Source: a bacterium (GTDB lineage Bacteria > Bacteroidota > Ignavibacteria > UBA10030). Taken from it: 64,000 nt of DNA. The notes below the pieces were generated by a model. That model was given only the letters and a program-made list of their open reading frames with translations, made no database searches and was not told the origin of the DNA. Positions 5,783 to 30,138 of this stretch are shown in pieces. Each line of letters begins with the position of its first letter. Within the stretch, counting starts at the first letter, position 1. The DNA lies in the NCBI GenBank assembly GCA_043803945.1, contig JAZDJN010000035.1, forward strand, positions 1 through 64,000, read 5' to 3'. A program made the position numbers and the translations under genes.

Positions 5783-6520
5783 TTAGAAAAACTTTGTGAT
5801 AGCAACTCCATAATTGTCCGGACAGACAACGCCGCCTACTCCCCAATCCTTGTAGGCTACACCACCAACCAATAAGGGTCCGAACTGAATACTGCCGCCA
5901 AAGGATTTCGCAATACCTGCGCCAAGATATGTTTTCCATGAAGGGATATCGTTGGATGGCTTCAATCTCTGGACATTGAATGACACAAGGCTCATATATC
6001 GTTCATCGACAATGATACGTGCATCGATGTATTTCAATTCGTCCTCATATAAGACAACACTTATCGGAGGAAGCGGATTGAACGTGAACAAACCTGAAAC
6101 GCTTAACGGATGTGTCTCTAACAGGCCACTAACTCTTACTATACCATTGTCTGAGAACAGCTCGAATCTGTAGTTCTGTCTAGACGAATCGACCATGTAG
6201 ACAATGCCATGCCCTGAATCATTTCTGAGCTTTACAACAAGTTCTTGGAACTGTTTGATGCTGATATCACGTTTACCTAATTCAGCATACAATACTTTTT
6301 GCTTCTCTTTCAACTGGTTCCACAACTCGCGCTCAGATTCGACTTCCCGCACTTTCCGTTCCCACTGATTCACTCCTACCTTGTGCAAGCTGTCTGCAGC
6401 GATCCTCTCAGCTCTTAATGACGATACTTCCCTGTTATGTTGAACTTCTCGAACCCAATACACTATCATAAAACCGAGAACTATGACTGGCACTATCGCC
6501 CACTTTTTAATTTTGCCCAT
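5783..6520 (-). CDS. Membrane-anchored coiled-coil lysis protein (spanin-like)
   Basis: N-terminal TM, coiled coil, C-terminal beta-strands; follows the endolysin; ATG 6520 preferred. Confidence 0.55.
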   Translation of the reverse strand: MGKIKKWAIVPVIVLGFMIVYWVREVQHNREVSSLRAERIAADSLHKVGVNQWERKVREVESERELWNQLKEKQKVLYAELGKRDISIKQFQELVVKLRNDSGHGIVYMVDSSRQNYRFELFSDNGIVRVSGLLETHPLSVSGLFTFNPLPPISVVLYEDELKYIDARIIVDERYMSLVSFNVQRLKPSNDIPSWKTYLGAGIAKSFGGSIQFGPLLVGGVAYKDWGVGGVVCPDNYGVAITKFF

Positions 6521-7176
6521 CTTTCTTCCTTCCTCATTTGATCTGCGATACGAACTATCTTCTCGGCATAGTCTCTCGGCTCTGAAAGAATGGTGAGCTT
6601 CAATACTTCCCAATTAGCACCATGCTTCTCAAGCCTGTTCTTCAAACGAGCAGGACCGGTATTATAACCCGCTGTAGCCACGAGTTCACATAACTTTTCA
6701 TCGAACATCATCCTATGCCGGACCTTGGGATTCTTGGTCGCAATCAAATACTGTTCGATGAATAGCATGTATCGTGACATCGCTCTGATTCCCCAGAACG
6801 GATTGTACAATACGGGGCGCTCTACCTTAGAGAATGCTTCGGCTGGATCCACCCCCTTTGCTCCATACATTGTTGCTGTAGACCAAATAAACTGTGTAAC
6901 CCCTGCAGCTCCTTTGCCTTGCTTGATGCCGGCAACAGTGTCCAATCCAGCCTTCTTCCATCCACCGTAATCAGAAGTAGCTAATGGATTGAACCCACTT
7001 TCACTATACACCTGAGCCAATCGGTAGAATACCTTGTCTCTGCCGCCATACACAGAATCAACACTACGTTTGAGCGCAGCGTCCCACTTGAAAACGTGCC
7101 GATTCTCAAACTTAGAATTGAAGGGCAATAGCGACAAACACCAGACCGACAACAATAGCCATCGCGATTGGATCAT
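6493..7176 (-). CDS. Endolysin, lytic transglycosylase (SLT) family
   Basis: AQVYSESGFNP (catalytic Glu), GAAGVTQF, GYNTG motifs; hydrophobic N-terminus. Confidence 0.85.
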   Translation of the reverse strand: MIQSRWLLLSVWCLSLLPFNSKFENRHVFKWDAALKRSVDSVYGGRDKVFYRLAQVYSESGFNPLATSDYGGWKKAGLDTVAGIKQGKGAAGVTQFIWSTATMYGAKGVDPAEAFSKVERPVLYNPFWGIRAMSRYMLFIEQYLIATKNPKVRHRMMFDEKLCELVATAGYNTGPARLKNRLEKHGANWEVLKLTILSEPRDYAEKIVRIADQMRKEERWAKLKSGR

Positions 7177-7414
7177 CTTTGATTGTCTCCTGTATATGGA
7201 ACTTTGGAAATCCCCACTTCAATACGATGAGCGACATACTTACGCCAATTCCAATGTTGATCAGCTTCCCTACTGCCAGCTGAATAATGTTTCTGAACCA
7301 CACATCATCTGCAGCAATTTGCCCCATCAGCAGCCCGACCACAACCATTGCGATCATTGAAGCGTGCCGCTTTAGGTTATACTTGACTCTTGCCAATAAT
7401 GAATATGAACTCAT
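7112..7414 (-). CDS. Holin-like membrane protein
   Basis: 100 aa, three hydrophobic segments, overlaps the endolysin start. Confidence 0.65.
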   Translation of the reverse strand: MSSYSLLARVKYNLKRHASMIAMVVVGLLMGQIAADDVWFRNIIQLAVGKLINIGIGVSMSLIVLKWGFPKFHIQETIKDDPIAMAIVVGLVFVAIALQF

Positions 7415-7472
7415 CTAAAATCCTTTCCTCAATTTGAGAAATGTGCTTTTCGGCTTGATTGTTGGGGCCAGT

Positions 7473-7919
7473 CTATTCACTAACACCTCCGTCTATTCGG
7501 GAAACTCGGAGAACACTCCTGATCTCGGCAATTGATATTGCCAACTGTTGCTGGGACACAGCCAAAGCAGAAACCATTACCTTCTGCTCTGATAAAATCT
7601 TGTTGGAATATTCCATGTGAGTGCTGATAACCTTCAGACTGCCATTAATCTCCTTTCTCCATAAATCAAGCTCGGCCAATCGTTCCATCACCACAACCTT
7701 ATCAGAGGCATGCAGCGTAGCCAGTCTCTCTATGGCAGTCTGAAGCGACTTGTCATTTAAACATCGCTCATCGGATTCTTTCGTAATCTCTTCTGCAGCG
7801 AACTTCTTTGATTCTTCCTTACTGCCGTTGATAGATTTCACAATACCAACGATCACAGATCCCACACCCAAGAATATCGTGACAAGAATTCCGGCTATTT
7901 TCAAAGCCTCATATTGCAT
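7473..7919 (-). CDS. TM plus coiled-coil phage protein (lysis-associated)
   Basis: N-terminal TM then helical region; position before holin. Confidence 0.55.
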   Translation of the reverse strand: MQYEALKIAGILVTIFLGVGSVIVGIVKSINGSKEESKKFAAEEITKESDERCLNDKSLQTAIERLATLHASDKVVVMERLAELDLWRKEINGSLKVISTHMEYSNKILSEQKVMVSALAVSQQQLAISIAEIRSVLRVSRIDGGVSE

Positions 7920-7927
7920 GGCAGCTC

Positions 7928-8185
7928 CTATTCTGCAGTGCTTGGATCCGTAAATAAGGTGTTTAGAATAAACTCCTCAGCTTGATACAAATATTTCCCG
8001 CCAACAAAGTCTTTTGGCAGGACTACATCGGTAACAACTGAAGCATTCGTCGAATTCAAATACGCTACAATGAATTCGGTATTTCCGGTGGATTCGTTCT
8101 TCACTATAACGCTGTTCTCCCCCACCTCGAAATCGTATGGCCCACCGTGAACAACAACACCCTTAGTATCAATCAGTATCTTCAT
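7928..8185 (-). CDS. Putative tail fibre assembly protein
   Basis: LPKDFVGGKYLY-type C-terminus; directly after fibre gene. Confidence 0.5.
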   Translation of the reverse strand: MKILIDTKGVVVHGGPYDFEVGENSVIVKNESTGNTEFIVAYLNSTNASVVTDVVLPKDFVGGKYLYQAEEFILNTLFTDPSTAE

Positions 8186-10386
8186 GATAAATCTCCATTC
8201 AGTTTTAACTTATATGCAGTTAGCGCTTTTCCTGCCAAATAATCTGTTTCCGAAGTTGTCAGCTCCACCGCATCGTTGATGAAGTAGCGCTTACCAATTT
8301 CAAGGCCACTGTGAATAATTGAGGATCCGCCTCGCAATGCCACGATCTTAGTATCAGCTGCATTGCCGGATTGCTGAAGGACACCATCCCAGTGATCTCT
8401 GTCGTCTTGAAGAACAAACGCACTGCCATTGTTGCCATCCTCCAAGATCAGAGCAATGAATTTTGAGTCTGTCAGAATGAGAATCGATTCACTGGTAGGA
8501 TTATCGTTGGCTCTGTTCGCAAAATGCGTCACGACATACTTGCGATTAGGAATCGCTCGCGTGTTGTGCACATCAACAAACATAAAGACGTATGGATTAG
8601 AAAGACTTGAGCCAATATCCTCCAACCAACCAATAGCAATGCGGCGTCCACCGAGATACTTCAGCGCCCTGCGTTTCGCTAAAACTCCAGAATGAATCTG
8701 CAGCCGGTCGCCAACACTTAGCCTGAAGTCATTGAGAACTTGACCAACAACTACTTCTAGCCGGTTGACATCGGCTCCATAAGGGACAAGAAGGGCAAAT
8801 TGATCTGTGCCGACAGCTGCTAATGAGAGCAATTCTGAATAAACACCCTCACACACAGGGACTTTCTGACTTGGTACTATTAAACCTGACAGCGTAAGGC
8901 GAATGGCCTGGACATAACCAACAGTCACACTAGAATCGGTGTAGGCAATAACAACTCGATACGTTGATACTTTGCAGACGCTCACATGTTGGCCAGTACT
9001 CAAGATCGTCAACGGAGAACCGATCGATAGGGAAAAGTCACCGGCTATAAATAAACAAACCGCAGCTAATCCGTCGTCGTCTTTGTAGAGAACCACAGCC
9101 ATCGAGCTGGCAAGAATTTCACAGGATATTTCTGTGTGATTTGAGCCGCTATGAATCGTTGTCGGAGCGCCGGTCGTTATCGTCGTCCCAGTGATCGTGC
9201 AAATTCTCGCCTTGCAAACAACGTTGGCTGATGTGACTATTAACACTTTTGACTCAGACACCTTTCGTAAATCAAAATCAGTCATGGCCGCGTCGGTGAA
9301 CAGCGACTGCTCGGATCCCCACGTCACACCTAATCCGGACACAGTTCCAATCTTTGCCTTCATATCATTGGACACCCAGTAAACAACCATAATCCTGGTA
9401 TCGCTCAATGCTACACCAACAAATGTAGAAGATAAATTGGTGATGGCTAGATTACGATTGCAATAAACCACAGAGCTGTCAAGACTGCCACTGACAGCAT
9501 ACAAAGCGTTCGTCGTTATGAAGAACGACACATGCCTGGTCGAAGTTAAAACGATCGTGGACGATCCACCGGGAAAAGCCTGTGCTGCTCCAGCGTTCAG
9601 AAGAGTAACGGCGCCGATTGAAAGGTCGGTGGCATTCGCCAATGTTACTATTGCTCCAACTCCCCCATAAGTCTCATACCATGTTGCCATCAATTTCGTG
9701 CTGCTAATTTTGCTCATTGAAAACGGAATCGATGCATTGCTGGAAAGCTCGATACCAATTCCGAATGTAAGTGACGTGCCGGAGATGGTTGCAGCCTTCA
9801 ACATCGGACGCAGGGTAGTATTCGCACGATACCGGACAACGACTGTTGACGCTGACAGAACACATACCTGACAAGGACTGTCTGGCCCACCCTCATTTGC
9901 AGCTGTAGAGACTAACACCGGACCGCCATGACCAATCACATTGCCACCCGTTACTGTTACCACTACTGCACTGGTCATGTCTCCCGTAGTATTCTCATAG
10001 TAAGCCAGGACAAACTTAGCTGCGTCAACAACGTCGCCACTGAGATACTTGCCGCCAACAATGGCCGCTACCGTGTCCGCTGCTCCCCATGAAAATGACG
10101 TGCCGCTGATGTCGCCAATGATCGACTTCACTGCTGTCTGAGTGTTGATGCTGACAGCAATCTTGCTGCTTGACAATGCCAACACAACCAAGCCGTACGA
10201 ATTATCAGCCAACGGCTGACTGGTGTTCCCGAAGGTAATCACATTGCCGGCATCGACATCGCCAACTTGAACCTTGCACTTGTTGTCAGTGTAATTATTA
10301 TATCCAATCACGATCTTCGACGCCGAAAGAGCTGTTACACCAATGGCGTGTTCGGCTAGAGAGGTTACGAGTGTTGATGGCCACAT
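8182..10386 (-). CDS. Tail fibre / receptor-binding protein, C-terminal part (beta-propeller-like repeats)
   Basis: ~50-aa repeats such as KARICTITGTTITTG; frame remains open upstream of the ATG to ~10473. Confidence 0.7.
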   Translation of the reverse strand: MWPSTLVTSLAEHAIGVTALSASKIVIGYNNYTDNKCKVQVGDVDAGNVITFGNTSQPLADNSYGLVVLALSSSKIAVSINTQTAVKSIIGDISGTSFSWGAADTVAAIVGGKYLSGDVVDAAKFVLAYYENTTGDMTSAVVVTVTGGNVIGHGGPVLVSTAANEGGPDSPCQVCVLSASTVVVRYRANTTLRPMLKAATISGTSLTFGIGIELSSNASIPFSMSKISSTKLMATWYETYGGVGAIVTLANATDLSIGAVTLLNAGAAQAFPGGSSTIVLTSTRHVSFFITTNALYAVSGSLDSSVVYCNRNLAITNLSSTFVGVALSDTRIMVVYWVSNDMKAKIGTVSGLGVTWGSEQSLFTDAAMTDFDLRKVSESKVLIVTSANVVCKARICTITGTTITTGAPTTIHSGSNHTEISCEILASSMAVVLYKDDDGLAAVCLFIAGDFSLSIGSPLTILSTGQHVSVCKVSTYRVVIAYTDSSVTVGYVQAIRLTLSGLIVPSQKVPVCEGVYSELLSLAAVGTDQFALLVPYGADVNRLEVVVGQVLNDFRLSVGDRLQIHSGVLAKRRALKYLGGRRIAIGWLEDIGSSLSNPYVFMFVDVHNTRAIPNRKYVVTHFANRANDNPTSESILILTDSKFIALILEDGNNGSAFVLQDDRDHWDGVLQQSGNAADTKIVALRGGSSIIHSGLEIGKRYFINDAVELTTSETDYLAGKALTAYKLKLNGDLS

Positions 10387-10412
10387 TGTGACTTTGTTGC
10401 CGGTAATCGTTC

Positions 10413-11279
10413 CTACCCTGGCATAGCAGGTGCTCCGTTGATGTCTTGCCTCAACGAGTATAACAGTACAAATTTATCATCTATTAGCTTCGCAGACGTT
10501 ACTTGTCCGTAGGCATTATTCCCATCATCGTCAATCTTCACTTCGCCATCCGTAATGTTGCAGACCAGCTTTTGCGCTACTGCCCCACCGTTATTCACAA
10601 TCTTTACCAGGTCACCTGCAGTCATCGATTCTCCCAGTTTTACAGTCAAGCTGCTTTCCAGTGCGTCAAGACGATCGGTGTGGGTATCCTGTGCAGTCTC
10701 AATCGCTGTAAACCGACCTTCAAAATCAAATGCACCCAGCTTCTTATCATAGAGAGGCCAGAGGTTAGTCACGATGCCCACCGCACTTACGTTACAAAGT
10801 TTGACATGAAACACTGAAGAGGTGTCCACAGGAACTGCCGTTGCATATCCAAGCGCAACAGTGTAGCGGTATTGGTTCGGTCCGGGAAGAGAAGTCGGCG
10901 CATACGGTGGATTCACATTAACGCTTTCGGGATCAGACTCATGGGTTAACTTCGATTCGGTGACAGCAAAGTATAATGCCCTGTCCTCTGCGACATGAGC
11001 TATCTCGGCTTGCTGTGTCAGTCGGACCAGATAATTCTTGAACAGCATCAAACCACTCGAGACTGAAACAAAGCCATTACTCACGTTCAGGTTTAGACCT
11101 TCGACGCGAACGGGCCCGAAGATCTTCGTCATAATTGTTTCCAGGCGATGCAATGGAATTTCGTTGTTCAGGTTCACGTCATAGTCTGTGAACTGAACAG
11201 GCAGAGGAAGAAATTCCACCTTCAGTATTGATTCGTCAAATACGCTCGCTGTTGAACGAAGCGGCAACGTCGTGGTCAT
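10413..11279 (-). CDS. Tail fibre, N-terminal part
   Basis: Follows baseplate genes; short coiled coil then first repeat; continues in another frame into 8182-10386. Confidence 0.65.
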   Translation of the reverse strand: MTTTLPLRSTASVFDESILKVEFLPLPVQFTDYDVNLNNEIPLHRLETIMTKIFGPVRVEGLNLNVSNGFVSVSSGLMLFKNYLVRLTQQAEIAHVAEDRALYFAVTESKLTHESDPESVNVNPPYAPTSLPGPNQYRYTVALGYATAVPVDTSSVFHVKLCNVSAVGIVTNLWPLYDKKLGAFDFEGRFTAIETAQDTHTDRLDALESSLTVKLGESMTAGDLVKIVNNGGAVAQKLVCNITDGEVKIDDDGNNAYGQVTSAKLIDDKFVLLYSLRQDINGAPAMPG

Positions 11280-11290
11280 TTTGAAACTCC

Positions 11291-11851: not shown

Positions 11852-11853
11852 AC

Positions 11854-13251
11854 CTACACCAGGTTTATAGTGACCGAACTTCCAATGTTTGTGAGAATTT
11901 CTGTATCACCAACCGCGACAGTCTCAACCGGAGAAGTAACGACGAATCCGGCTAATAACGATCCGTTGTTCGTAATCACATCCATGATATCCGTCAACGT
12001 CAACGAGACACCGAACTCAACGATATAATCGACATTCTGCACTGTCGGATTAAGGCGACGCAGTAAGTCCGCTGTCAAGGATGCCTGCACCTCAGAGCCT
12101 ACCAGCCCGGGACGTGCAATTCCAGTAACGACAATATCAACTGGCCGATAAGACGGAGCTATAACAGAGAGTGTATATCCAAGCAATATTCTGCTGTAGA
12201 GGTATTCAAACACACTATTGAGCAAGGCACTTGAAGGATCTCCGCCACCTGCAGGAATTATCCTCACAACCACAGTCTTGCTGACCAATGACACCAAACA
12301 TCTTTCAACTCCTTCGATAGCATTGACGGCCGCATCGATGTCTTCTATGTTTACCACTCGATCATACGCTCTGCGGAGACGCGGGGCCAGCAACCTTATC
12401 TTGTCGATAGCCTCCAAGTCCTGACCGCCAGCCATCGAGCTGCTAGCCACAATAACTACCGCATATGGAGAGTTCTCAACTGTCTGAACCTTGTCTGCTG
12501 CGGCTATATTGCCGCGAGTTCCACCGCCAATTCTCGAATCAATCAGGATCTTTGCATTCAATCCGGGCATTGCACCATAGATGCCATCTCCAAATACCAC
12601 ACGGCTAAAACTATCGCCCAGGTATTCAACGATGAAATGTTTCGAGGTAGAAATGCTTTCAGTAAACGAAGATACCTTTGTCCACGACACACCACCGACC
12701 TTAACTCTGACACTGCCGTTAATCACGTTGCGGTCAGTAATCATTGTCGCTTGGTATGGTCTTCCAGTACCGACAAGTGTCTGACTAATGCTGCGGCCTT
12801 CCACTACAGCGATTGTCATATTCTCAATGAGAGAAGGGATGGTGAATGATTCGCTATTCTCATAGTAAATCATCTCTCCATCTGCCCCAAGAACAGAAGC
12901 CTGAATTTCGAACTGCCCAACGGTGCGGGGATTCGGGTTGCTGTCGAACTGAACGGAAATCGTCCCGATACTTGCTACCAGCGTTTTTATCGGATACCCA
13001 AGAGCCAAAGCCCTTGCTTCGACAAACTTGCGTTCTCGAGCTGTAAGTATATTCCATTCTCCGGACCATGCGTTTACCAGCCACAACGCTTTATCGAGTG
13101 CATGAAGATAGAGGTCTAACGCAAACTTCCCCAAGTCATTCTCGTTGTCAAATTCCCAATCGGGAAAATGAGTTTCAGCCAAAGCCTTCGCCGCAGCTAT
13201 CAACGAATCGTAATTCATATCTGTTATGTTAAACGTAAACTTAGCTGCCAT
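11854..13251 (-). CDS. Baseplate J/gp47-family wedge protein
   Basis: FGDGIYGAMP, GGGTRGNI, GGQDLE...RVVNIED motifs. Confidence 0.9.
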   Translation of the reverse strand: MAAKFTFNITDMNYDSLIAAAKALAETHFPDWEFDNENDLGKFALDLYLHALDKALWLVNAWSGEWNILTARERKFVEARALALGYPIKTLVASIGTISVQFDSNPNPRTVGQFEIQASVLGADGEMIYYENSESFTIPSLIENMTIAVVEGRSISQTLVGTGRPYQATMITDRNVINGSVRVKVGGVSWTKVSSFTESISTSKHFIVEYLGDSFSRVVFGDGIYGAMPGLNAKILIDSRIGGGTRGNIAAADKVQTVENSPYAVVIVASSSMAGGQDLEAIDKIRLLAPRLRRAYDRVVNIEDIDAAVNAIEGVERCLVSLVSKTVVVRIIPAGGGDPSSALLNSVFEYLYSRILLGYTLSVIAPSYRPVDIVVTGIARPGLVGSEVQASLTADLLRRLNPTVQNVDYIVEFGVSLTLTDIMDVITNNGSLLAGFVVTSPVETVAVGDTEILTNIGSSVTINLV

Positions 13252-13900: not shown

Positions 13901-13907
13901 AGCTTGC

Positions 13908-19731: not shown

Positions 19732-19955
19732 CTAAATTACACGCCTGCTGAGAGCTTCTAACAGCAACTTCTTATACTGAATCTCACTGTCGATGTCTTT
19801 ACAAATTCGCTCAAAGAGTTGAATTCTTACTGAGCGAGTTAGCGAGAAAATCTCTTTACGGCCGTAGCCTGTATGAACCGATAGGATAAATACTTGCTCG
19901 TCCAGGCCATACTCGTAATCATCATGGAACAGAATACTCGCTAACTCACCAATGG
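19732..19955 (-). CDS. Tail chaperone -1 frameshift extension (gpGT-like)
   Basis: Open -1 frame with no ATG, from slippery T TTT TTC (19962-19956) to TAG at 19732: PIGELASILFHDDYEYGLDEQVFILSVHTGYGRKEIFSL... Confidence 0.75.
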
Positions 19956-20801
19956 GAAAAAACTTGCATAGTCCACGCTGGCGTCATAATCCTGCTTGCA
20001 ATTATTACAGGTGACGGGAGCCTGTAACGAGATCTGCGGCAGCTTGTTTAGTGCATCTCGAATAGCCATGCGGTCATTCGCAATCAAGCCGCCGCGATCG
20101 GCAAAGAATATATTGCCAGCCTGATACGCTTCGAACATTTCAGACGGCATCTCAAACTTGTCCTTAGAACACACAACTCTTTTAAGACGGTCATTTACAA
20201 TCTTTGCCTGAAAATCCAAGACCCGGCTGGTCGTAGATAAATTCTCGTTGCGAAGAGCATCACCAAGCGATGGGATTCCGAACACAAAGGTGTCGAATAC
20301 CTTATCTTCCCACCCAAGCTCTTTCTGATTTCTCTTTTCGGGATCTAGTTGACGCTTCCACCCTCTTGGCAGTTTTACCACAATCTCAGATTGAATCGGA
20401 ACATTGAGATCGACTGTGGGAATCGGCATCTGGTTCAAATCCAAATCGCTGACATTAGGTCTTCCGCAATGCAAACACTTCGTTTTCTGGTTCTTCAACT
20501 CAGAACCATACGTGTTGATATGACCCTTAACAAGAATCAATCCAGCGTCAACGATTGGAATATTTTTCACGATCGGTGGAATCTTCTTCCCATCCGATTC
20601 TACAAAATCACTGGACACGACGTTGTCACCAATTGTGTGTAACAATCCGGACACAACCATCGCAACCCACGTCTGGGGCTTTTCTGACCTCAACATCTGG
20701 TTGTGAATGATGCGCTCGATGAAACCATCAATGAGATTAACCTCGAACGTGCGATAGTCAACTCCCTGATAGGTAAATCCAACTGGTAGTAAATTCGGCA
20801 T
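19941..20801 (-). CDS. Tail assembly chaperone
   Basis: Between tube and tape measure; CxxC pairs, ends ASFFPLVS. Confidence 0.75.
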   Translation of the reverse strand: MPNLLPVGFTYQGVDYRTFEVNLIDGFIERIIHNQMLRSEKPQTWVAMVVSGLLHTIGDNVVSSDFVESDGKKIPPIVKNIPIVDAGLILVKGHINTYGSELKNQKTKCLHCGRPNVSDLDLNQMPIPTVDLNVPIQSEIVVKLPRGWKRQLDPEKRNQKELGWEDKVFDTFVFGIPSLGDALRNENLSTTSRVLDFQAKIVNDRLKRVVCSKDKFEMPSEMFEAYQAGNIFFADRGGLIANDRMAIRDALNKLPQISLQAPVTCNNCKQDYDASVDYASFFPLVS

Positions 20802-20845: not shown

Positions 20846-21289
20846 TTAGGCTTCTTCCCAATGATCAACCTGGGCAACATACGTTTGATCGGACTTCGCT
20901 CCATCGCCCTTACCCGACGTGTCGAAATCATTGTATTTGAAGTCATTCATCAGCAAGCCTGTGAAGAGGATCTTCAAGACCTGCTTGCCATGACGATACT
21001 GCACAAAGGAGCCATTGACCTTAACTCCCGTCTTGATTACATCTCGAACAAACTTGGCGAACACCCCGTCTGCCGCAGAGTTATCTCTGGTTCGTGTCAT
21101 GGTGATAGCACCATTCTCCTCAATCCCGTCACTGAAGTTGAACGCCATGTTCGTGCCGCCATCAATGATAGTCATCGTGCCGGTTTTTACACCAATTCCT
21201 GACAACTTGTGGAAGTGAGGACTGGTCAACCCAGGCAGCTCAAAGACCCATCCGTTAATTGGAATGAGGTCATTCGGTTTCTGTTCCAT
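20846..21289 (-). CDS. Tail tube protein (T4 gp19-like)
   Basis: 147 aa after sheath; FHKLSGI, ITMTR, NGSFVQY pattern. Confidence 0.85.
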   Translation of the reverse strand: MEQKPNDLIPINGWVFELPGLTSPHFHKLSGIGVKTGTMTIIDGGTNMAFNFSDGIEENGAITMTRTRDNSAADGVFAKFVRDVIKTGVKVNGSFVQYRHGKQVLKILFTGLLMNDFKYNDFDTSGKGDGAKSDQTYVAQVDHWEEA

Positions 21290-21348: not shown

Positions 21349-22842
21349 TTACTTATCGCTCACGACCAGATTGTCACGAGTCTGAATGATATTGACAGTA
21401 GCGGATTCAATCGCTTCCACAGGATGGAACGAGAAGTCTGCCGCAAGCTCACCGCGGTCAACCATGTCCTGACTGTTGTTCTCATCGTCGCATTTTATCT
21501 TTACGTTGTTCGTAATACCGCCTCGTGTGTTGAAAGCGCCATTCCGATAACAGTCTTGAGCAAAGAACGTAAGGCCGTCTGTCACTCTTCGCCGTGTATC
21601 GTCATTGTTCGGCTCCTGCTCAATCCACATAAAACTGCGCTGGAAGCTGTCAATGAAGAAATTCGTCATTCTCCGGACGTGTGCAGAGTAATGCTTACGC
21701 TGTGAGGAGAATGTCCGAGACGTGCGAACCACAAATCCATAGCCCGGAACATGCTGGACAGGATTGAAGCCAACTGTCTGAACCAGCTCATTCACCTCGG
21801 CATCTGAATAGCCGGGATACTCAAGCTCAACAACGTCTCTCAACGCTGTCGCGGGCCCAGCAGGTGCAACCCACGGAAATCCACCGCGATCCATTGCCTT
21901 GCGAATCCAGGCGGCGCCGGTCACATGGCCAAGGAGAGGAATTGAAATCAAACCGCCATTCTCGTTGTCAACCTTTCCCCACCCCCGATAGCCACACACA
22001 AAGCTCTTCGCCTGCAGCATGGCGGCATAATCCGTTGTCAATGTCGCAATCGAAGTCGCCAACGGTGAAGAACACAAACCGATGGACTTGCGGCCCTCAA
22101 CGTAGCTCTTGAGTGCAGCTGCTCCAGCGGCAGTGTGTAAATCGGCATTGAAGATCACCGGAACCGACTTGCCGTTGAGTTTCGCATATGCGGCTGTATA
22201 ATCAGACGCATCTGGTGCTGAACCATCAACGCCTGCAGTCAATGCAGTCTTCGTGATTGCCTTTGCAGTCAACGTCGCACCTTCAGCCAAGGCGACCTTG
22301 ACATAGAACGATTTGCGATTAATAACATCGACGACATTGCTGTTATTCAACGCTTCATGGATTTCCTTTAACACCTGTGCCGAATCCTTCGGGCCTTGAT
22401 ACCAGACATACACATCACGCTTCGCTGCATCTGATGGCGTGTCTTTGATCTCGATGTAGATACTGTTTCCATCTACACCAGGGCTTTCATACCCAAGATA
22501 CCCGGCTGTGAATACCCACGCATCGGCTGGCGTTCCAGCACCGTCTTTGAAGGTTTTCGTTGCCGCAACGGCTCCATCACCAATCACACGAACCGTGACA
22601 ACGCTTGCGCCATATTCTTGGCAATTCACAAACAAGCCCCGGCGCATGAAACCGCCAAGCCAGTTTGTGCCATAGTCGCCGAACACCTTCTTATCGTCAT
22701 TCACATTATACAGCGGAACAGCGAGTGCCACCGGACCTCGTCGGGACGCCGATACGACACCGACACCAAAAATGTCGCTTGGAACGATTCTGCCGGCATC
22801 TGCTGCGTCTCGTTCATTGATGTTCACTCCAATGTTTGACAT
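21349..22842 (-). CDS. Contractile tail sheath protein
   Basis: GVNINE, RGP, WVAPAG, VRR, EQEPN, VKIKCDDENN motifs. Confidence 0.93.
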   Translation of the reverse strand: MSNIGVNINERDAADAGRIVPSDIFGVGVVSASRRGPVALAVPLYNVNDDKKVFGDYGTNWLGGFMRRGLFVNCQEYGASVVTVRVIGDGAVAATKTFKDGAGTPADAWVFTAGYLGYESPGVDGNSIYIEIKDTPSDAAKRDVYVWYQGPKDSAQVLKEIHEALNNSNVVDVINRKSFYVKVALAEGATLTAKAITKTALTAGVDGSAPDASDYTAAYAKLNGKSVPVIFNADLHTAAGAAALKSYVEGRKSIGLCSSPLATSIATLTTDYAAMLQAKSFVCGYRGWGKVDNENGGLISIPLLGHVTGAAWIRKAMDRGGFPWVAPAGPATALRDVVELEYPGYSDAEVNELVQTVGFNPVQHVPGYGFVVRTSRTFSSQRKHYSAHVRRMTNFFIDSFQRSFMWIEQEPNNDDTRRRVTDGLTFFAQDCYRNGAFNTRGGITNNVKIKCDDENNSQDMVDRGELAADFSFHPVEAIESATVNIIQTRDNLVVSDK

Positions 22843-22859
22843 ACAATAGTCCTCCTTAA

Positions 22860-23102: not shown

Positions 23103-23106
23103 CCCG

Positions 23107-23658
23107 TCACTCCGCTAAGTTTTCTGTTGAAGTTTCTGTTCGAATCTCCCAATCGACGATCGGCGGGCCGTTGACGACATCGGCTGTATAAATCGGGACA
23201 TACAACTCATACACGAAATCATACCTGAAAGTCCCTGCTCCGATATCAGGCAATTCTTGCTGGTCGACTAAAAGTATTTCGTAATTGTCGCCATCAATGG
23301 TGAGCCACGTTTGCCCGCGCCGCTCTGAGAACAAATCGTATAACAAGCGATACAGTATCATTGCGTGATCGAATCGGTTTGAATACGCAGTCACCTGATA
23401 GGTAAACTTGAATCTCTTCGGTGGTTTTTGCTCTTTGACTGTCCCTTCTTGGTCGTCATAGATCATCTTTCCGTTCACATACACTCGATTGGTGATCTTG
23501 GGAATAAACGGCTGAATCACAATGCTTGGATACTCTGGCGTATCTTTCATCTCTGGCTGTGCATTGAAAAACTTACAGGGGACGGCCACTTCTCCAATCT
23601 CTAATCCATCGTGTTTATCAAAAAACGCTTTATGCACTTCCATCATATCGGTGATCAT
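23107..23658 (-). CDS. Tail terminator-like protein
   Basis: YPSIVI, FTYQVTAYS; position upstream of sheath. Confidence 0.65.
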   Translation of the reverse strand: MITDMMEVHKAFFDKHDGLEIGEVAVPCKFFNAQPEMKDTPEYPSIVIQPFIPKITNRVYVNGKMIYDDQEGTVKEQKPPKRFKFTYQVTAYSNRFDHAMILYRLLYDLFSERRGQTWLTIDGDNYEILLVDQQELPDIGAGTFRYDFVYELYVPIYTADVVNGPPIVDWEIRTETSTENLAE

Positions 23659-24152
23659 ACTCCAAACACCTCTACTCTTGTTCTGTTCACTATTGTTTGA
23701 AGCACTGGCTGGAGTTTGTCTTTTAACTCTTCCGCTGTCAATCGATAGACCGGCCTTGCCGGCACATTCCTCGCTGGATCGCCATACTCATGCATCAAGG
23801 CTATCAATGCTATGTCAAGTTTAGAACCTCTGTGCCTCTTACCGCCTTTGATACCTACGAATGCTTTGCCATCTTTAATCGGAGATTTCTTGATGCTGTC
23901 TAACATCTGACCAGTAGCAATCAGAATTCTGGTGTCCAATCCCCTCTTCACTTTCCACTCTTTATACCAAGCCGACAACGGCGCTAACGGTAAATCTTGC
24001 GCCTTAAAATGGTCGACTAACGCCTGATAATACTCTTCCGAGACATCTGCGGCGATGTTATGCTGCAGAGCTTTTATGAACTTTGGCAGCAACGCCAAGT
24101 ACCTCTTAGCTTGCGACCAATCGCCATTCAAAGTGCATTCTACACTAGGCAA
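23655..24152 (-). CDS. Virion morphogenesis / neck protein
   Basis: LIATGQMLDSI, HEYG...VPARP motifs. Confidence 0.75.
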   Translation of the reverse strand: MPSVECTLNGDWSQAKRYLALLPKFIKALQHNIAADVSEEYYQALVDHFKAQDLPLAPLSAWYKEWKVKRGLDTRILIATGQMLDSIKKSPIKDGKAFVGIKGGKRHRGSKLDIALIALMHEYGDPARNVPARPVYRLTAEELKDKLQPVLQTIVNRTRVEVFGV

Positions 24153-24561: not shown

Positions 24562-25217
24562 TATCCCACCATAACAAAAGGCCCAGCGGCCTCTTTATCG
24601 AATTCAGTCAACAGCTTGCCGGCCTCTGTGCTGTACTGGTCGGTCTTTTCTTTTACCTCTCCACCGTCAACATTGATATCGTATGTAGCGAGCATTTTGG
24701 GGATTGCTACTCTCAGGGAAGTTGCTATCGCATACTTCAATATTGTGCGACGATCGACAGGGCTTAGATCCGCCTCTGTAGGGACTCCAAATCCATAGAG
24801 TTTTACTTCTCCCGTAACACCATACGGGAACACTAAGACGCCACGCATCAGGTCATGTCTCCATTCGCCATAGTCTTTGCGCTCGGTGCTATAAGGATAA
24901 TCACGCTGAGTTTCTTCAATCATTGTCAGGTCAACGAGATTGTCACCGGCGTAGACATCAAACGATTTCAATTCGTTCAACCGCCGTCCATTATACCACA
25001 CCTGCTTAACAAGCGTCATTGCCGAAGGAACCTCAGCCTCTGTGACTGTAGAATTCAATGTCAGTGTAGCTTTTACGTTAAAAGGCTTTCGAGAAGAAAA
25101 GGCGCTGATACCTTCCGTCACAATAGACTCCAGCTCTCCGTTGCCCTCTTCACCCTCGAAATATTTGTTCAGATTTCGAGTGCCAAGCTCATATTTCAAC
25201 GGTTCTAATAATGTCAT
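24561..25217 (-). CDS. Head-tail adaptor-like protein
   Basis: Position after head genes; helical ends. Confidence 0.5.
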   Translation of the reverse strand: MTLLEPLKYELGTRNLNKYFEGEEGNGELESIVTEGISAFSSRKPFNVKATLTLNSTVTEAEVPSAMTLVKQVWYNGRRLNELKSFDVYAGDNLVDLTMIEETQRDYPYSTERKDYGEWRHDLMRGVLVFPYGVTGEVKLYGFGVPTEADLSPVDRRTILKYAIATSLRVAIPKMLATYDINVDGGEVKEKTDQYSTEAGKLLTEFDKEAAGPFVMVG

Positions 25218-26902
25218 GGCCTTACCGGTCCAAAATTCTGGCTGAACAACTCAAATATTTTTAACAGCTCCGGCATACTGCGCTTGGCTTGTCTCTTCGC
25301 TGCCTCAAGCATCTCACTGTTACGCGTTACATACCACGATACACTATCGGCAAAATGCTCCTTTGTATTCAACAGGCTGTTGCCGGTCAGGAACCCGCCC
25401 TTCGTATTCCGCTGCCAGTGCTTAGGATTGAATACTCCACCTTCACCAGTGCGCTTCCAACTGATCTGGCAGAACTTCTCATACAATTCCTGATACTGAT
25501 ACTGCAATGAATGGCCAAGCTCATGACTGAAGACATGCTCAAATACACTGTCGCTCAACTCTTTGTTTTCGTTGAAACGCATCCATCTGCCATCTAAAAC
25601 ATATTCTGCTACATTGGCAGCTGCGGCGCCGGTAGCGAATACCTCAGTCAGCTTCATGTTCTTGAGCATCACCTCGTACGGCATTGAATCAAGGATTCGA
25701 GCCATCGAGTTCATCCGGTCAATTGTAAACCTACGATCGACAGTGATACCGTAAATATCTCTCACGTAGTCCGCGGCATCATCCACATTGACGAAATCAC
25801 CAATCCGTTCCGCATTGATGTAGGGCTCATTGTCTGAGGCTGTCTCTACTGATTTAATGTATCTGCGAACACCACGATTGTCCTCGGAGCCTTTTAAAAC
25901 ATTCGTGCCTAACTGATACTCAAGGTAACACCCGCACCGAATCGTATTGCGTGCGCTTGCATCGGGGTCGTGCGGCCGCAGCATCGGTTCGCCATCGACC
26001 ATATACTTCTCTTCGAACTTCAAGGTTTGTCCCATCACCTCTGTGTGCGCTTTCCTTCGGCTCCCTCTGAAAATCTGGAACCAGGTCTTGATCATCTCTA
26101 CGCCTTGGTAATCACGATACTCGGATGCATAATTCCACTCACCATGATTGACAGCGTTCGCGACTTCCGTAATAGCTATCGTTTGAGCATTTGATTTCGG
26201 GCCGAGAATTGACTGAACCCTGTTAGCCATACGAGCCTTACTGTCACCACTGGCATATCCGGAGGCTAAGGACGATCTCAACTTCTCTTTAAGGTTATTG
26301 GTCATTGTCATAGACCGGATCTTGAAATCTTTGTTAAAAAGAAAATCTCTCGCCTTCTCGTTGAACTCTCTATACTTTGCGTCAAAGTTAATTCCAATCT
26401 TCAAGCTGAAGGGTGAACTCGCTGTGCGTTTTTCAAGAACTTCCTTGTCCGGGACGTTAATCATGTTCGATCTGGCATAATCGAAAACCTTTTCATTCGA
26501 CCGCAATCCCTTTGTGTGAATCCTGAAATCGTGAAAACGTTTGTTCTGTTCACTCCTGATATCTTGATACAACTCTCCTACTCCACCACGATATGCCTTC
26601 ACTCTCGAACTAAGGATTGACAGCCCAAATGCTAAATAAAAAGGCAAACCCTTTGTGAATCCAGACTGCTCTCCGATAAACTCTTGCCGCACCTCTGATT
26701 CTACTTCAGGATTTGCCTTCATTGGTATATTGTCGAGACCTTCGACCTTCTGTCTCAAGAGCGCATATAATTTCTCCCTCTCGATCGACTCACTTTCACC
26801 TTCTACTCCATTGATTGCAGACTCAAAATCATCATAGACTTCGTCGTAATAGGTCTGCAAAGTGTTTTGAAGCTCAGTGATGTCATCTCGGAAATCATAC
26901 AT
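25214..26902 (-). CDS. MuF (phage minor head) protein with C-terminal zinc metallopeptidase
   Basis: AQTIAITEV, KTW...RKAH...GQ, RPHDP...NTIRCGC; C-terminal HELGH and EHFADS. Confidence 0.85.
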   Translation of the reverse strand: MYDFRDDITELQNTLQTYYDEVYDDFESAINGVEGESESIEREKLYALLRQKVEGLDNIPMKANPEVESEVRQEFIGEQSGFTKGLPFYLAFGLSILSSRVKAYRGGVGELYQDIRSEQNKRFHDFRIHTKGLRSNEKVFDYARSNMINVPDKEVLEKRTASSPFSLKIGINFDAKYREFNEKARDFLFNKDFKIRSMTMTNNLKEKLRSSLASGYASGDSKARMANRVQSILGPKSNAQTIAITEVANAVNHGEWNYASEYRDYQGVEMIKTWFQIFRGSRRKAHTEVMGQTLKFEEKYMVDGEPMLRPHDPDASARNTIRCGCYLEYQLGTNVLKGSEDNRGVRRYIKSVETASDNEPYINAERIGDFVNVDDAADYVRDIYGITVDRRFTIDRMNSMARILDSMPYEVMLKNMKLTEVFATGAAAANVAEYVLDGRWMRFNENKELSDSVFEHVFSHELGHSLQYQYQELYEKFCQISWKRTGEGGVFNPKHWQRNTKGGFLTGNSLLNTKEHFADSVSWYVTRNSEMLEAAKRQAKRSMPELLKIFELFSQNFGPVRP

Positions 26903-26908
26903 ACTGCC

Positions 26909-27367
26909 TTATCCATTTGGATGAACTGATAAGATATGTGCATTGAGTTTCTTCTTCGACGTAAACCCTGCAACATCACAATGCGGACACTTGATTATCG
27001 ATGAAGCATTTGCCGGAGACTCAGCGTTATTCAAACCCTGATCTGACACCAAGGTAAATGCAGGTTGATTTTGCCCCAGCTCATCGTCACTCGCCTCTAT
27101 CTGTGGGGCTAAAAACGCATCGCCTAACGACTCCTGAATCGTTGCATCTTCAAGCGTAAGCTGCTTGGTAAGATCGGTCTCTGTGATTGTCAAATCTGTT
27201 GCACTAATCGACTTTCTTGCCGCTTCAATATCGTCACACACCCATCCTTCATTTGAATCGTGCAACTCGATAGCTCTTAACGCTGTCACTCGGATCGAGG
27301 CTCCGGATTGAACGAACTGACCGAATAGGTTTGTGGCGAATATCTTTGTCCATCGAACTTCAAACAT
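26909..27367 (-). CDS. Hypothetical protein with C-terminal C2H2-like zinc finger
   Basis: CPHC...HILSVH; GGAGGA RBS before ATG 27367. Confidence 0.6.
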   Translation of the reverse strand: MFEVRWTKIFATNLFGQFVQSGASIRVTALRAIELHDSNEGWVCDDIEAARKSISATDLTITETDLTKQLTLEDATIQESLGDAFLAPQIEASDDELGQNQPAFTLVSDQGLNNAESPANASSIIKCPHCDVAGFTSKKKLNAHILSVHPNG

Positions 27368-27447
27368 CGTTTCCTCCGTAGTAACCTTCCTGCGGCAGCA
27401 GCAATATTCAGCTGCCACCGCATGGAAGGGATGTGGAATTGGGAAAA

Positions 27448-30138
27448 TTACGCTACAACGGTGATCAATGAACTCTTCTCAGGTAAAGGAGTCTTCAGAG
27501 CATCTTCCTGGTAAAGATAGTACTCTTCACCGCCGATCAATGCACCGTCACCATCACGAACCGGATATGGACCCTTCATCGCCAACGGTTCAAAGATTCT
27601 GAAGATTGTCGAATCACGCTTGGAGATGAGAATGAAGGAATCATCCCAAACGTCCGAACCGAAGTGCGGCAGATTCGCCGATCGGCCATAGTTTCCTTCG
27701 CCTTTCACCGACCCGGCCTCCATACCTGAACGGTTGAGGCTTGAGGCGTATGCCTCTGCTTGTGTCAGGTAATTCGATGTCACCTCTGATGCAAGCATGA
27801 AATCGGGCTTGTAACCTCGTGTCTGGCGATGTGCGGCAGCCGTATTGCTCACAGCGAAAAGCAGCTTGTTCATGTGCTTTTCCCACGCAACGCCTTCTGC
27901 CGGTGTCAGTGAGAAACGGGTTTCATTCGTGGCTTTCTTACCACCAACCACGACAGCTTTCGTGTTCGCCGGAGCCGACGGAGCGCCATCAGCATCGACA
28001 AATGCCACTTTGCCATTCTGGGCGTCCAAGATGTAGAACATAGTGCCGGATGTGCTTACTTCAAATTCGTTGATGGCCACGGCATCAACCGTAACTGTGA
28101 GTGTTTCGCCAGGAGAAATCGATGCACCGCTTGACGCCGTAAAGACTGTCGCTGTGCCGTTTCCTACTCCATTGTAGGTGAATGCCACCGAGCCATAGGC
28201 AAGGGCTGCGTTTCGCATTTCGGTGAATACCATCTGCTGGAGTGACCGCTTGAGATCTGCAATCAGATTTGCAATACCCTGGCTTACTCCTGTGATATTG
28301 GAATACCGTTTTGACAATGTCATGAACTCGTCCGAAAAGGATGCAGCCAGCTTAGTTGGCGTTGCGTCGATGTTGAACCATTCAGTCGTGAGCTTCCCTT
28401 TTGGAATCTTGCCAAACTCAGCGACCTTCAACTCACTCTGGCGTTTCTTCGAAGCCTTGTTGGTGAACTGGGTTGTGGTAAGGCCGCCTTCACGTCGATA
28501 TCGAGTGATGGGAATTTGATCGCGTTTTGCTGTCATCGGACCGAAGTCGGTCAGGCTCTCGATCATGTAATCGGAATACACTTCCTCGAGGACGAGTCTT
28601 GAAATGGTATATGGAATCTGGAAATCCGCCGGTGTCGTCGTGGCATCCACCAGAGCCTGAATCTTCGCTGACTCTTCGGCAAGGCGCATACCGTGAATCT
28701 GATCGTAAACTCTCAAAAACTCACGAACGGTAGGCCTGCGGTCTTTCCCGACCAGAAGGTTATCCTTCGTTGTGGATTGGAATTTTCCTGTTCCCATCAA
28801 CTGATCGGCAATGATCTCCACGCCTTTCAAATGTTCCGGTGCAAGTTTGATATCCATAACTTGTTGTCCTTTCGGCGCTAGGCCTTCTTGTTTCAACCGT
28901 TCCTGAGCAACACCGAGATTGAGCATCTTGACAAACTGCTCAACATGGGTATCAATCAACGCGGTGCTTTCGAATGATTTTGTTTTCAATGAATCAAGAA
29001 TCTGTGTCTTTGCATCGTCGGTTAGATCCAGCCTGGTAATCTTGTCGGTCAGATACGCCGCCATCTGTGTGATGTGACGCTCGGTGTTTTTCTGCTTCAC
29101 CTGCTTCTCAACTGCTAGCTTGATGCGATCGGTCAAAGCCGTGACATCTGTGGTGGCTGTCGCTGTGGTGTCAACGCCTGCAGAAGCCTGTGCAGCTGCT
29201 TCAGCGTCTGTCGGTGCAGGAATAATCATATCAACGATAGCCTTCAAGTCCGCTGTTATCTGCAGCAGTTTCTGGTTTTTCGTTTCGGGGTCCATCGTCT
29301 CATCGGCCTTTAAGCCTTCAACTCCGGTGCGGAGCGAAGCGAAGGTATCAACAATCTCTGTTGACATCTGTGTATCTTCCTTCGTTTGCGCCTGAATCGT
29401 GTCAACCAATTTGGAAACCGCTTCGACCAATTTCCCGTTGGCTTCAACAAGTGCTTGCAATTCTTGAGGTTTCAACATAGCTTCTTCCTCCTTATAATTA
29501 TCTTCGATGCGTGATAGGTTAACAATACGGTCGACTTCTATTGTGTCAAGAAGACGTATCTGCGTCCTGTCTCCTGCAGCCGCCGACTCAAGCAAACAAA
29601 AATCGTATCCAAGTATTTTTACAATCTTGTCAACAACGATAAAATAATTACCATCGACATCTTCACGAACACTTTGAATCCCCAGCGCTCGTTGCGACGT
29701 TCCTAATTTCACTTTAGAATCAAACAACACTTTTACGTGATCGCCATCCTTCGTAGGCAGTAACGAGATGTTCACCAGGGTCTCGCCAGCCTCATTCAAC
29801 GCAACGATCTCGCATGTGCCTGCAAGCTCTTTCATCGAACCCCGAATGTCTCCCATGGGATGTTCTTCGTAAGCAGTCAACTGCCACTTATCTGTTAACC
29901 ACTCGCTCACCGCATCCCTTTGAACTGTCATCGGAATGACACGCTGGTTTCCGTTGATAACATTCGCAATAGAGCCTACAGTCTGGAACCGGAACTTCTG
30001 ATCGGTGAGCTGTTCAACTGTGATTTCAATTACATCTGAGATGAACTCGACGGTCTTGCCAATCTTATCGAGTAATTCTTGTGGCAGCTTCGACGTGTCA
30101 GTCACGACCTTACTCTCTGCGATGTTTACCTTTTTCAT
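27448..30138 (-). CDS. Major capsid protein fused to prohead protease and scaffold
   Basis: N-terminal NGNQRV, HP, SQRALG, YDF protease pattern; helical middle; C-terminal GPM, TKLAASFSDE, ASEVTS capsid-like pattern; first gene of head operon. Confidence 0.75.
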   Translation of the reverse strand: MKKVNIAESKVVTDTSKLPQELLDKIGKTVEFISDVIEITVEQLTDQKFRFQTVGSIANVINGNQRVIPMTVQRDAVSEWLTDKWQLTAYEEHPMGDIRGSMKELAGTCEIVALNEAGETLVNISLLPTKDGDHVKVLFDSKVKLGTSQRALGIQSVREDVDGNYFIVVDKIVKILGYDFCLLESAAAGDRTQIRLLDTIEVDRIVNLSRIEDNYKEEEAMLKPQELQALVEANGKLVEAVSKLVDTIQAQTKEDTQMSTEIVDTFASLRTGVEGLKADETMDPETKNQKLLQITADLKAIVDMIIPAPTDAEAAAQASAGVDTTATATTDVTALTDRIKLAVEKQVKQKNTERHITQMAAYLTDKITRLDLTDDAKTQILDSLKTKSFESTALIDTHVEQFVKMLNLGVAQERLKQEGLAPKGQQVMDIKLAPEHLKGVEIIADQLMGTGKFQSTTKDNLLVGKDRRPTVREFLRVYDQIHGMRLAEESAKIQALVDATTTPADFQIPYTISRLVLEEVYSDYMIESLTDFGPMTAKRDQIPITRYRREGGLTTTQFTNKASKKRQSELKVAEFGKIPKGKLTTEWFNIDATPTKLAASFSDEFMTLSKRYSNITGVSQGIANLIADLKRSLQQMVFTEMRNAALAYGSVAFTYNGVGNGTATVFTASSGASISPGETLTVTVDAVAINEFEVSTSGTMFYILDAQNGKVAFVDADGAPSAPANTKAVVVGGKKATNETRFSLTPAEGVAWEKHMNKLLFAVSNTAAAHRQTRGYKPDFMLASEVTSNYLTQAEAYASSLNRSGMEAGSVKGEGNYGRSANLPHFGSDVWDDSFILISKRDSTIFRIFEPLAMKGPYPVRDGDGALIGGEEYYLYQEDALKTPLPEKSSLITVVA

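Follow-up and report, generated by a model that had tools for sequence, protein, structure and literature searches.

Among described systems, the tail genes considered here most closely resemble those of Molly_1 and Colly_1 of the Molycolviridae (NC_062751, 124.7 kb; Bartlau et al. 2021, PMC8776804). Maribacter phage Molly is an isolated, plaque-forming phage and a myovirus by transmission electron microscopy; its head measures 75 nm, its tail 101 nm and its genome 124 kb, and it has no integrase. Sheath, tube, tube initiator, simple baseplate of the gpJ/gpI type and tape measure are homologous across contractile systems, including the extracellular contractile injection systems (eCIS) Afp, PVC, MAC and AlgoCIS. 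Here, a 64,000-nucleotide stretch of DNA (the window), corresponding to bases 1-64,000 of the 122,323-bp contig C35 in a draft Ignavibacteria-type genome (G000; 5.54 Mb, 118 contigs), was analysed together with the remainder of its contig. The subject is a block of genes at positions 5783-30138, which very probably forms the late operon for head, tail and lysis functions of a single contractile-tailed prophage, integrated and ∼116 kb in size. The element spans ∼5.8 to 121.5 kb of the contig, extending ∼57 kb past the end of the window on to the second half of the contig.

The block comprises 27 open reading frames (ORFs), all on the minus strand and closely packed from 30138 down to 5783, in the order capsid, MuF, neck, sheath, tube, tape measure, baseplate, fibres and lysis. 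An earlier reading of the window from its letters alone (the original prediction) had described a continuous 24-kb operon from capsid to lysis with its own promoter, a capsid gene in first place with MuF behind it, and no recognisable terminase or portal gene. This description was borne out, with the refinements that the promoter is a consensus match only (Table 1) and that the first gene is predicted to encode prohead protease, scaffold and major capsid protein in one fused chain. A terminator-like hairpin (30300-30275) lies between the sigma-70-like match and the capsid start codon. In total, 133 ORFs of the contig were scanned against family models (27 in the operon, 52 at 30.4-63.9 kb, nine at 1-5.4 kb and 45 beyond the window). 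None of the 88 scanned ORFs within the window matched a terminase, whilst nine of the 27 operon ORFs matched a PHROG (E ≤ 1e-3) and ten a Pfam family (E ≤ 0.01). PHROGs 859 and 2662, both labelled portal, did give matches in the window; the alignment in each case is to the MuF domain of the MuF gene, and these PHROGs are read here as portal-MuF fusion families.

Both packaging genes were found beyond the window, on the strand of the operon and 53-65 kb from it, with the portal gene ∼10 kb past the gene for the terminase large subunit (TerL). The TerL ORF is intact and carries the motifs PRSHGKS, IIADD and HDD, which we take to be the Walker A, Walker B and nuclease acid residues, respectively. 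In addition to its PHROG match (Table 1), it is recognised by the NCBIfam model for T7-type TerL (E 1e-14) and by that for the psiM2_ORF9 TerL nuclease domain (47.4 bits, over the cut-off of 41.65), and 600 phage records match it by tblastn, the best ones being annotated as terminase. Neither Terminase_6N nor Terminase_6C of Pfam matched anything in the whole genome, indicating that this TerL lies outside those models, and a phmmer search of the PDB with TerL gave no match. A conserved 275-aa gene precedes it. A second candidate, the UvrD helicase at contig positions 114295-117216, was rejected, since its PHROG matches to 'terminase large subunit' are spurious and due to an intein, falling as they do in the intein region (residues 10-286).

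Assignment of the portal draws on the ESM Atlas and on a family profile. In the Atlas, the 465-aa protein scores 0.98 and its ten best family-bearing matches are all portal clusters, whilst its stored Atlas model superposes on Portal_T4 models with template-modelling (TM) scores of 0.68-0.71. A profile built from 13 sequences of its family, searched against 1.84 billion representatives, recovered 115 proteins at E ≤ 1e-3, of which 38 also passed a threshold of E ≤ 1e-10. A set of 90 sequences, comprising the portal query and 89 of the longer profile matches (short fragments and the last few being left out), was then scanned against Pfam; Portal_T4 was matched by 54 (best E 5e-56), Phage_portal_3 by five, Phage_portal by three and Portal_Mu by one, with MuF also present in eight. 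With the widened profile, moreover, two solved structures of T4 gp20 (3ja7 and 6uzc) are matched at E ∼1e-23. On this evidence, which is indirect but consistent, the 465-aa protein is a divergent portal of the T4 type. Direct comparisons were uninformative: phmmer against the PDB found nothing meaningful, tblastn against phage genomes found nothing, and the Portal_T4 model had no match in the whole genome at E ≤ 1. A divergent portal can evidently slip past every direct hidden Markov model.

The 896-aa product of the first operon gene is read, from its sequence and modelled folds, as a probable protease-scaffold-capsid fusion with an HK97-type capsid domain, laid out as protease (residues ∼40-260), helical scaffold (∼225-530) and major capsid protein (∼500-896). 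Ten full-length relatives share 53-66% identity with it. A scan of IMG/VR with the capsid protein found no relative. Peptidase_S77, the family of the T4 gp21-type prohead protease, is detected in eight of 11 family members (best E 1.3e-5, Pfam), and the 896-aa protein itself matches PHROG 207, head maturation protease, at E 4.8e-4. No Pfam capsid model matches the 896-aa protein directly, phmmer against the PDB gave no match, and the A2 profile found no meaningful match in the PDB. By ESM Atlas language-model features, residues 500-896 score 0.92 to major-capsid clusters, and residues 507-896 superpose on clusters of ∼840-890-aa protease fusions (Mu-like_Pro or Peptidase_S77) with TM scores of 0.79 and 0.65; the corresponding values for the capsid part are 0.61 against Gp23 models and 0.57 against Phage_capsid models. 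A comparable protein is the 871-aa product of Virus Rctr41k (KX853513) annotated as 'putative phage capsid protein and protease', which has the same three-part layout and a similar length, aligns in four collinear BLASTP segments (best E 2e-14; identity ∼25-30% in the aligned segments) and is likewise followed by MuF-like head-morphogenesis genes. Unlike the gene described here, however, the Rctr41k fusion gene stands directly after the terminase gene. Likeness to T4 is seen in the reach of the portal profile to gp20, in the Peptidase_S77 protease (gp21) and in the fit of the capsid part to Gp23 models, whereas the distance is very great (there is no direct Pfam match), a single fused protein covers protease, scaffold and capsid, the baseplate is of a simple kind unlike that of T4 and the element appears to be integrated.

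The order of capsid followed by MuF is kept in seven metagenome relatives, and in five of these seven the 169-aa gene of Table 1 sits between the two. The 3-kb upstream flanks of the same seven relatives never contain a portal or TerL gene, which indicates that separation of capsid and packaging genes is a trait of the lineage.

The unity of the element was examined by comparison with a related genome, from an uncultured Ignavibacteriaceae bacterium (G001), the only close relative found in the species-genome collection. Homologues of the capsid gene, TerL and portal are present in G001 at 58%, 70% and 65% identity, respectively. When 136 contig ORFs were compared by tblastn, 41 matched a first set of G001 stretches and 17 a second set. 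The block at contig 95-121.5 kb, which carries the Bet-like gene, replication genes and TerL, is collinear with contig C47 of G001, and contig C4 carries 24 of the 27 operon ORFs in collinear order, those missing being the 734-aa fibre ORF and two small ORFs. The G001 sequence that directly follows TerL shares 89% identity with the beginning of the portal contig, which puts TerL and portal ∼7 kb apart in G001, compared with ∼10 kb in G000, where an insertion sequence (IS) has entered. Homology ends directly after the 276-aa last lysis gene and directly outside the Bet-like gene, and beyond both of these ends lie host-like genes with their best matches on other G000 contigs. G001 carries the replication-to-TerL, portal and capsid-to-lysis modules. 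Further, one capsid homologue and one portal homologue come from the same source, with a longest contig of 110,170 bp in each case.

These data bear on whether TerL and the portal might instead derive from a neighbouring, for example podovirus-like, phage inserted in tandem, with the capsid-tail operon being a satellite or defective element. Such an arrangement could feasibly account for the 53 kb between the portal and capsid genes and the cargo-like and defence genes therein, for the presence near the portal of the gp77 and gp80 fibre-adaptor families of podophage GP4, and for the lack of conservation of the portal-capsid interval in G001, as judged from the queries used. However, the 133 scanned ORFs of the contig include one capsid gene, one portal and one TerL, with no second capsid, portal, terminase or tail set among them, and neither a second tail and neck set nor an integrase lies between the modules. 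A T4-type portal also suits an S77 (T4 gp21-type) protease and a Gp23-like capsid, which argues for one element, and capsid, TerL and portal co-occur in G001 at similar identities (58-70%), where host-like DNA is confined to the flanks beyond the Bet-like gene and the lysis cassette. Two elements side by side are therefore considered highly improbable. The element is, rather, a large prophage with scattered virion modules, the gene order of which is unusual yet conserved in the lineage.

Comparison of the tail with that of Molly_1 revealed that ten operon proteins, from Neck1 to just past gpJ, match in identical order, with similar sizes and 23-34% identity. The order and sizes of Neck1, sheath, tube, tape measure and gpJ-like wedge agree between the two, as does the genome size class, and the inner baseplate proteins of Molly_1 (197, 92, 485, 248 and 119 aa) are similar in size to those of the operon. 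The 194-, 93-, 237- and 119-aa proteins match Molly_1 gp089, gp090, gp092 and gp093, in that order, at E 1e-26, 1e-7, 4e-9 and 1e-3, and the gpJ-like wedge matches the gp094 baseplate wedge protein at E 3e-39. The sheath matches 294 phage records, with the Molly/Colly sheath in first place (aligned over 100% of the query at 25% identity, E 3e-38). The Molly host belongs to the same Fibrobacteres-Chlorobi-Bacteroidetes (FCB) superphylum as the G000 lineage. Conversely, the head proteins show little similarity or none that is detectable: the protease reaches E 0.006 by BLASTP, and hhalign of the capsid and portal families against individual Molly proteins gave no significant score. Molly encodes TerL, portal, protease-scaffold (432 aa) and capsid (474 aa) in separate, adjacent genes, whereas here protease-scaffold and capsid are fused in 896 aa and lie 53-65 kb from portal and TerL; Molly, moreover, was isolated as a plaque-forming phage, whereas the G000 element appears to be integrated. 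On this evidence, the tail appears to be of the Molly type, yet the element would not be a member of the Molycolviridae as judged by shared structural core proteins, only the tail and neck proteins being detectably similar.

The tail also has a bearing on the boldest part of the original prediction. Having noted that tube, tube initiator, LysM, gp25 and gpJ genes resemble those of eCIS, it offered two explanations for the missing packaging genes, namely that they lie elsewhere in a large phage or phage-plasmid, or that the operon specifies a packaging-less headed injection particle, a possible phage-to-eCIS intermediate that would deliver protein cargo. The resemblance to eCIS held in part. 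A gpJ gene is present (Baseplate_J, E 5e-10) and weak tube and tube-initiator matches fall under their cut-offs, whereas LysM reached only E 0.014 and gp25 had no match even at E ≤ 1; the tail as a whole, as described above, is collinear with that of Molly_1. The wedge proteins match TIGR02243 (E 1.6e-27) and TIGR02242 (E 5.6e-6), both under their own cut-offs, and the 194-aa protein (16387-16971) is tube-initiator-like by CIS_tube (E 5e-5, under the Pfam cut-off). These three families we take to mark eCIS loci, and the sub-threshold matches to them reflect the shared ancestry of simple baseplates.

The same matches, together with a promoter-like site of the operon's own, the lack of TerL and portal within it, and a MuF peptidase domain that could serve as cargo, are what can be said for an injection particle assembled from the operon alone and loaded with protein cargo but no DNA. 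Against it, an intact TerL and a portal reside on the contig and strand of the operon and co-occur with the capsid gene in G001, and the tail genes keep the order seen in an isolated DNA phage. All known tailed phages with a capsid dependent on a prohead protease and scaffold build it on a portal. Afp and PVC loci feature an AAA+ ATPase of the Afp15 type, and no AAA match was found in the 27 operon ORFs (Pfam, E ≤ 0.01; PHROG, E ≤ 1e-3). Unlike eCIS, the G000 element has capsid, prohead protease, MuF, neck, portal, TerL and a lysis cassette; of the virion gene set of a tailed phage, TerL, portal and a contractile tail with sheath, tube, tape measure and baseplate were found on it, as was the protease. 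The whole-contig search for TerL and portal that was proposed with the original prediction located both beyond the window, on the same element, which refutes the injection-particle reading and the intermediate status that went with it; its likelihood is considered negligible. The other explanation, a large phage with its packaging genes elsewhere, stands. Indeed, absence of terminase and portal from a 64-kb window is not evidence for a packaging-less particle when the element exceeds the window.

In the prophage favoured here, the capsid precursor would presumably co-assemble on the portal and then cut itself free, TerL would pack DNA into the head, the neck proteins would connect head and tail, and the holin-like protein and SLT lysin would free the virions.

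Whether the element is integrated was judged from its flanks. The left 5.7 kb of the window contains an IS66 fragment, an alpha/beta hydrolase gene and repetitive extragenic palindromic (REP)-like repeats (385-544, 1313-1409, 2490-2655 and ∼5559-5619) that are common to at least nine other G000 contigs. The copy at ∼5559-5619 adjoins the prophage junction on the host side and occurs in very great numbers among related metagenome contigs. The right end of the contig is a 141-bp repeat, common to four other contig ends, ∼0.85 kb past the Bet-like gene. Among the sequencing runs listed, none contained more than 0.17 of the words of window 4300-7300, and no RNA run was among them. In four sequencing runs, contigs cover 4300 to ∼5710, with none in 5714-7300 and none across. 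These observations on sequencing runs were not used as evidence. A remnant of ∼32 aa at contig 121652-121748 (minus strand), just outside the last phage gene, resembles the C-terminus of the C39 tyrosine integrase and is identical to it over 20 aa; it may have been left there by a different integrative element that used this site.

It could be argued that binning or misassembly has attached host DNA to what is, in fact, the contig of a free lytic phage or a phage-plasmid. This would be in keeping with the failure to find an integrase or attachment-site repeats, with the presence of a ParB-like gene, with a genome size and tail that resemble those of the lytic phage Molly, and with the absence of the capsid gene from all 300 other sampled genomes of the class. 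On the other hand, the left flank carries the IS66 fragment and the repeats common to at least nine other contigs, and both outer ends in the independent G001 genome adjoin genes with homologues on other G000 contigs. The ParB-like protein belongs to a nuclease-type PHROG and its gene lies beside TerL, and neither Rep nor ParA was found; with host-like flanks in addition, the phage-plasmid variant in the original prediction was not sustained. A free phage is accordingly improbable, and it is concluded that the element is most probably an integrated prophage of ∼116 kb.

Several observations nevertheless weigh against an intact, integrated prophage with its packaging genes in place. No integrase is present on the contig, all ten tyrosine integrase (Phage_integrase) matches being elsewhere in the genome, and family scans recognised no recombinase on the contig except the IS transposase. 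No direct repeats of at least 12 bp are shared between contig 4.5-5.9 kb and 121.3-122.3 kb. The portal ORF, taken alone, matches no Pfam, PHROG or NCBIfam model. AlphaFold2 models are of low confidence for both the portal (predicted local distance difference test, pLDDT, 50.3) and the 896-aa capsid protein (pLDDT 44.1; beta-rich N-terminus, ∼300 residues of long helices, alpha/beta C-terminal half), and for this reason both folds rest on the profile and Atlas evidence. Each of the three modules sits on a contig of its own in G001, and physical linkage is therefore shown in G000 only. Finally, the IS/IstB insertion by the portal gene may mean that the element is decaying or no longer inducible.

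The features of the operon and of the packaging genes are collected in Table 1.

Table 1. Features of the late operon, its upstream region and the remainder of the element. Positions are numbered from the first base of contig C35, which is also the first base of the window.
Feature	Position	Strand	Evidence or remark
Sigma-70-like promoter match upstream of capsid gene	30384..30412	-	TTGACA-17-TATATT, 11/12, consensus match only
Putative prohead protease + scaffold + major capsid fusion, 896 aa	27448..30138	-	PHROG 207, Peptidase_S77 relatives, Atlas, Rctr41k
Conserved protein, 169 aa, head accessory by position	26909..27418	-	No family match bar weak zinc finger
MuF minor head protein with C-terminal HExxH metallopeptidase domain	25214..26902	-	PHROG 2468, E 6e-24
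Neck/connector genes: 218, 138, 165, 183, 80 aa	22860..25217	-	PHROG 222, NF047498, Molly_1, position
Tail sheath	21349..22842	-	PHROG 23, E 8e-34; Phage_sheath_1C, E 4e-8
Tail tube	20846..21289	-	Pfam T4_gp19, E 8e-4 (under cut-off); Molly_1 gp084 tail protein, E 9e-17
286-aa protein in tail-chaperone position	19941..20801	-	Pfam T4_baseplate, E 4.7e-7; 57% identity in G001
Tape measure, 917 aa	16968..19721	-	TIGR01760, E 2.8e-25; PhageMin_Tail, E 1e-19; 15 tape-measure PHROGs
Inner baseplate: 194, 93, 482, 237, 106, 119 aa	13224..16971	-	CIS_tube, PHROG 7145, Molly_1, position
Baseplate wedge: gpJ-like 465 aa and gpI-like 186 aa	11291..13251	-	Baseplate_J, E 5e-10; PHROG 219, E 1e-25
Probable fibre/receptor-binding region: 288, 734, 85 aa	7928..11279	-	No family match; position and variability
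Lysis cassette: 148 aa, 100-aa DUF350 membrane protein, 227-aa SLT lytic transglycosylase, 276-aa last gene	5783..7919	-	
Gabija pair GajA/GajB	39443..42221	+	PADLOC GajA, E 2e-201; GajB, E 5e-131; opposite strand to phage genes
Divergent portal, 465 aa	83593..84990	-	ESM Atlas and family profile
TerL, 588 aa	95229..96995	-	PHROG 38, E 4e-68

Within the neck region, the 165-aa protein (23655-24152) corresponds to Neck1, the tail completion protein (PHROG 222, E 3.9e-11; Molly_1 gp080, Neck1, E 2e-20), and the 183-aa protein is neck-terminator-like (NF047498, E 7.8e-5), whilst the 218-, 138- and 80-aa proteins are neck or connector proteins by position. A role as tail chaperone for the 286-aa protein is likewise suggested by its place in the operon. 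In the baseplate, the 93-aa protein matches a wedge family (PHROG 7145, E 5e-6), the Baseplate_J gene is that at 11854-13251, and the 482-aa protein is a candidate hub or spike, both it and the 106-aa protein being placed by position. Position and variability point to 7928-11279 as the fibre or receptor-binding region; in G001, where the fibre region is ∼11 kb, the 288-aa protein is conserved over its N-terminal 186 residues only. All four lysis genes are kept in G001. The DUF350 gene (7112-7414; Pfam, E 5e-6) is a holin candidate, and the lysin gene (6493-7176) matches SLT of Pfam (E 2e-5) and PHROG 669, endolysin (E 1e-10). The endolysin homologue of G001 (contig C4, 91402-92061) has one in-frame TAA, and that copy may be defective.

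The MuF protein matches Phage_Mu_F of Pfam just short of the cut-off (E 2e-6, 29.0 bits against 29.6), and its residues 442-542 match Peptidase_Mx1 (E 2e-6, 27.7 bits against a cut-off of 25.6) and TIGR04549 (E 2e-6). It is full-length in relatives, at 43-60% identity, and the metallopeptidase domain is kept in all of the full-length relatives. A MuF domain followed by a C-terminal enzymatic domain, in the head module of a prophage, is also the reported layout of the MuF polymorphic toxins of temperate phages (Jamet et al. 2017; PMC5576092). In contrast to those toxins, however, the present metallopeptidase domain is conserved across relatives as opposed to variable or swapped, and no immunity gene was identified.

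Between the portal and capsid genes lies ∼53 kb of variable cargo, comprising giant ORFs, a ligase, PolX, a methylase, RadC, toxin-antitoxin pairs and the Gabija pair. The Gabija genes are followed by a zinc alcohol dehydrogenase gene (42616-43593). Toxin-antitoxin pairs, a PIN (VapC-like) toxin with a MazE-like antitoxin and BrnT with BrnA, are encoded at 31051-31910 and 44198-44733 (both minus strand), and a PolX-like polymerase fragment at 35830-36438. The minus strand of the window at 45-57 kb encodes RadC, DUF6573, KTSC, an N6/N4 methylase and an ATP-dependent ligase, a set typical of anti-restriction or early regions. One giant ORF (2,005 aa; 59696-64000 in the window and on to 65713 of the contig) has weak AAA_22 matches only, and the other (4,423 aa; contig 66843-80114, minus strand) has no Pfam or PHROG match at E ≤ 1e-3. 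Both lie between the portal and the capsid operon and are flanked by small proteins like the fibre adaptors of Ralstonia podophage GP4, gp77-like at contig 66539-66859 and gp80-like at 83171-83590. The giant ORFs, which may be giant fibres or internal virion proteins, were not found in G001 with the two queries used, an empty result that says little.

Just upstream of the portal gene, at contig 85668-87195, are an IS transposase (rve/HTH, plus strand) and a C-terminal fragment of IstB; a polar effect on expression of the portal is possible, and the insertion may show that the element has long been resident. Contig 87279-94472 (minus strand), which lies between TerL and the portal, encodes proteins with C-terminal sorting domains like those of type IX secretion (Por_Secre_tail, CHU_C or FlgD_ig, with FG-GAP, InlB B-repeat and TPR parts). 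Similar domains occur in G001 upstream of the portal and of the capsid gene, at the ends of contigs C72 and C4, and the proteins may be phage-encoded secreted or virion-decorating products. The intein of the UvrD-type helicase (minus strand) contains a homing-endonuclease domain (Hom_end_hint and Hom_end). Its G001 homologue aligns only from residue 368, and the intein may be absent there.

A search of the literature on Ignavibacteria and prophages yielded no such phage by title or abstract among the matches listed, which is not proof of absence in print. It is conceivable, albeit a long shot, that the element may stand for an undescribed lineage of ∼110-120-kb temperate Ignavibacteria myophages with portal, protease and capsid of the T4 type and no recognisable integrase, in which the packaging module (TerL, the proteins with sorting-like C-terminal domains and portal) is kept apart from a self-promoted capsid-to-lysis operon by a large, fast-changing cargo, which here comprises the 4,423-aa and 2,005-aa ORFs and Gabija among others. 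Nothing supports a bolder form of this idea, in which the operon would also be expressed alone to give DNA-free particles delivering the MuF metallopeptidase. The finding provides a near-complete prophage of ∼116 kb from a phylum with few described phages. With it come a clear case of a predicted protease-scaffold-capsid fusion, a MuF protein with a conserved metallopeptidase, a tail that appears to be of the Molly type in a distant host, and a cargo region that includes Gabija, toxin-antitoxin pairs and two giant ORFs.

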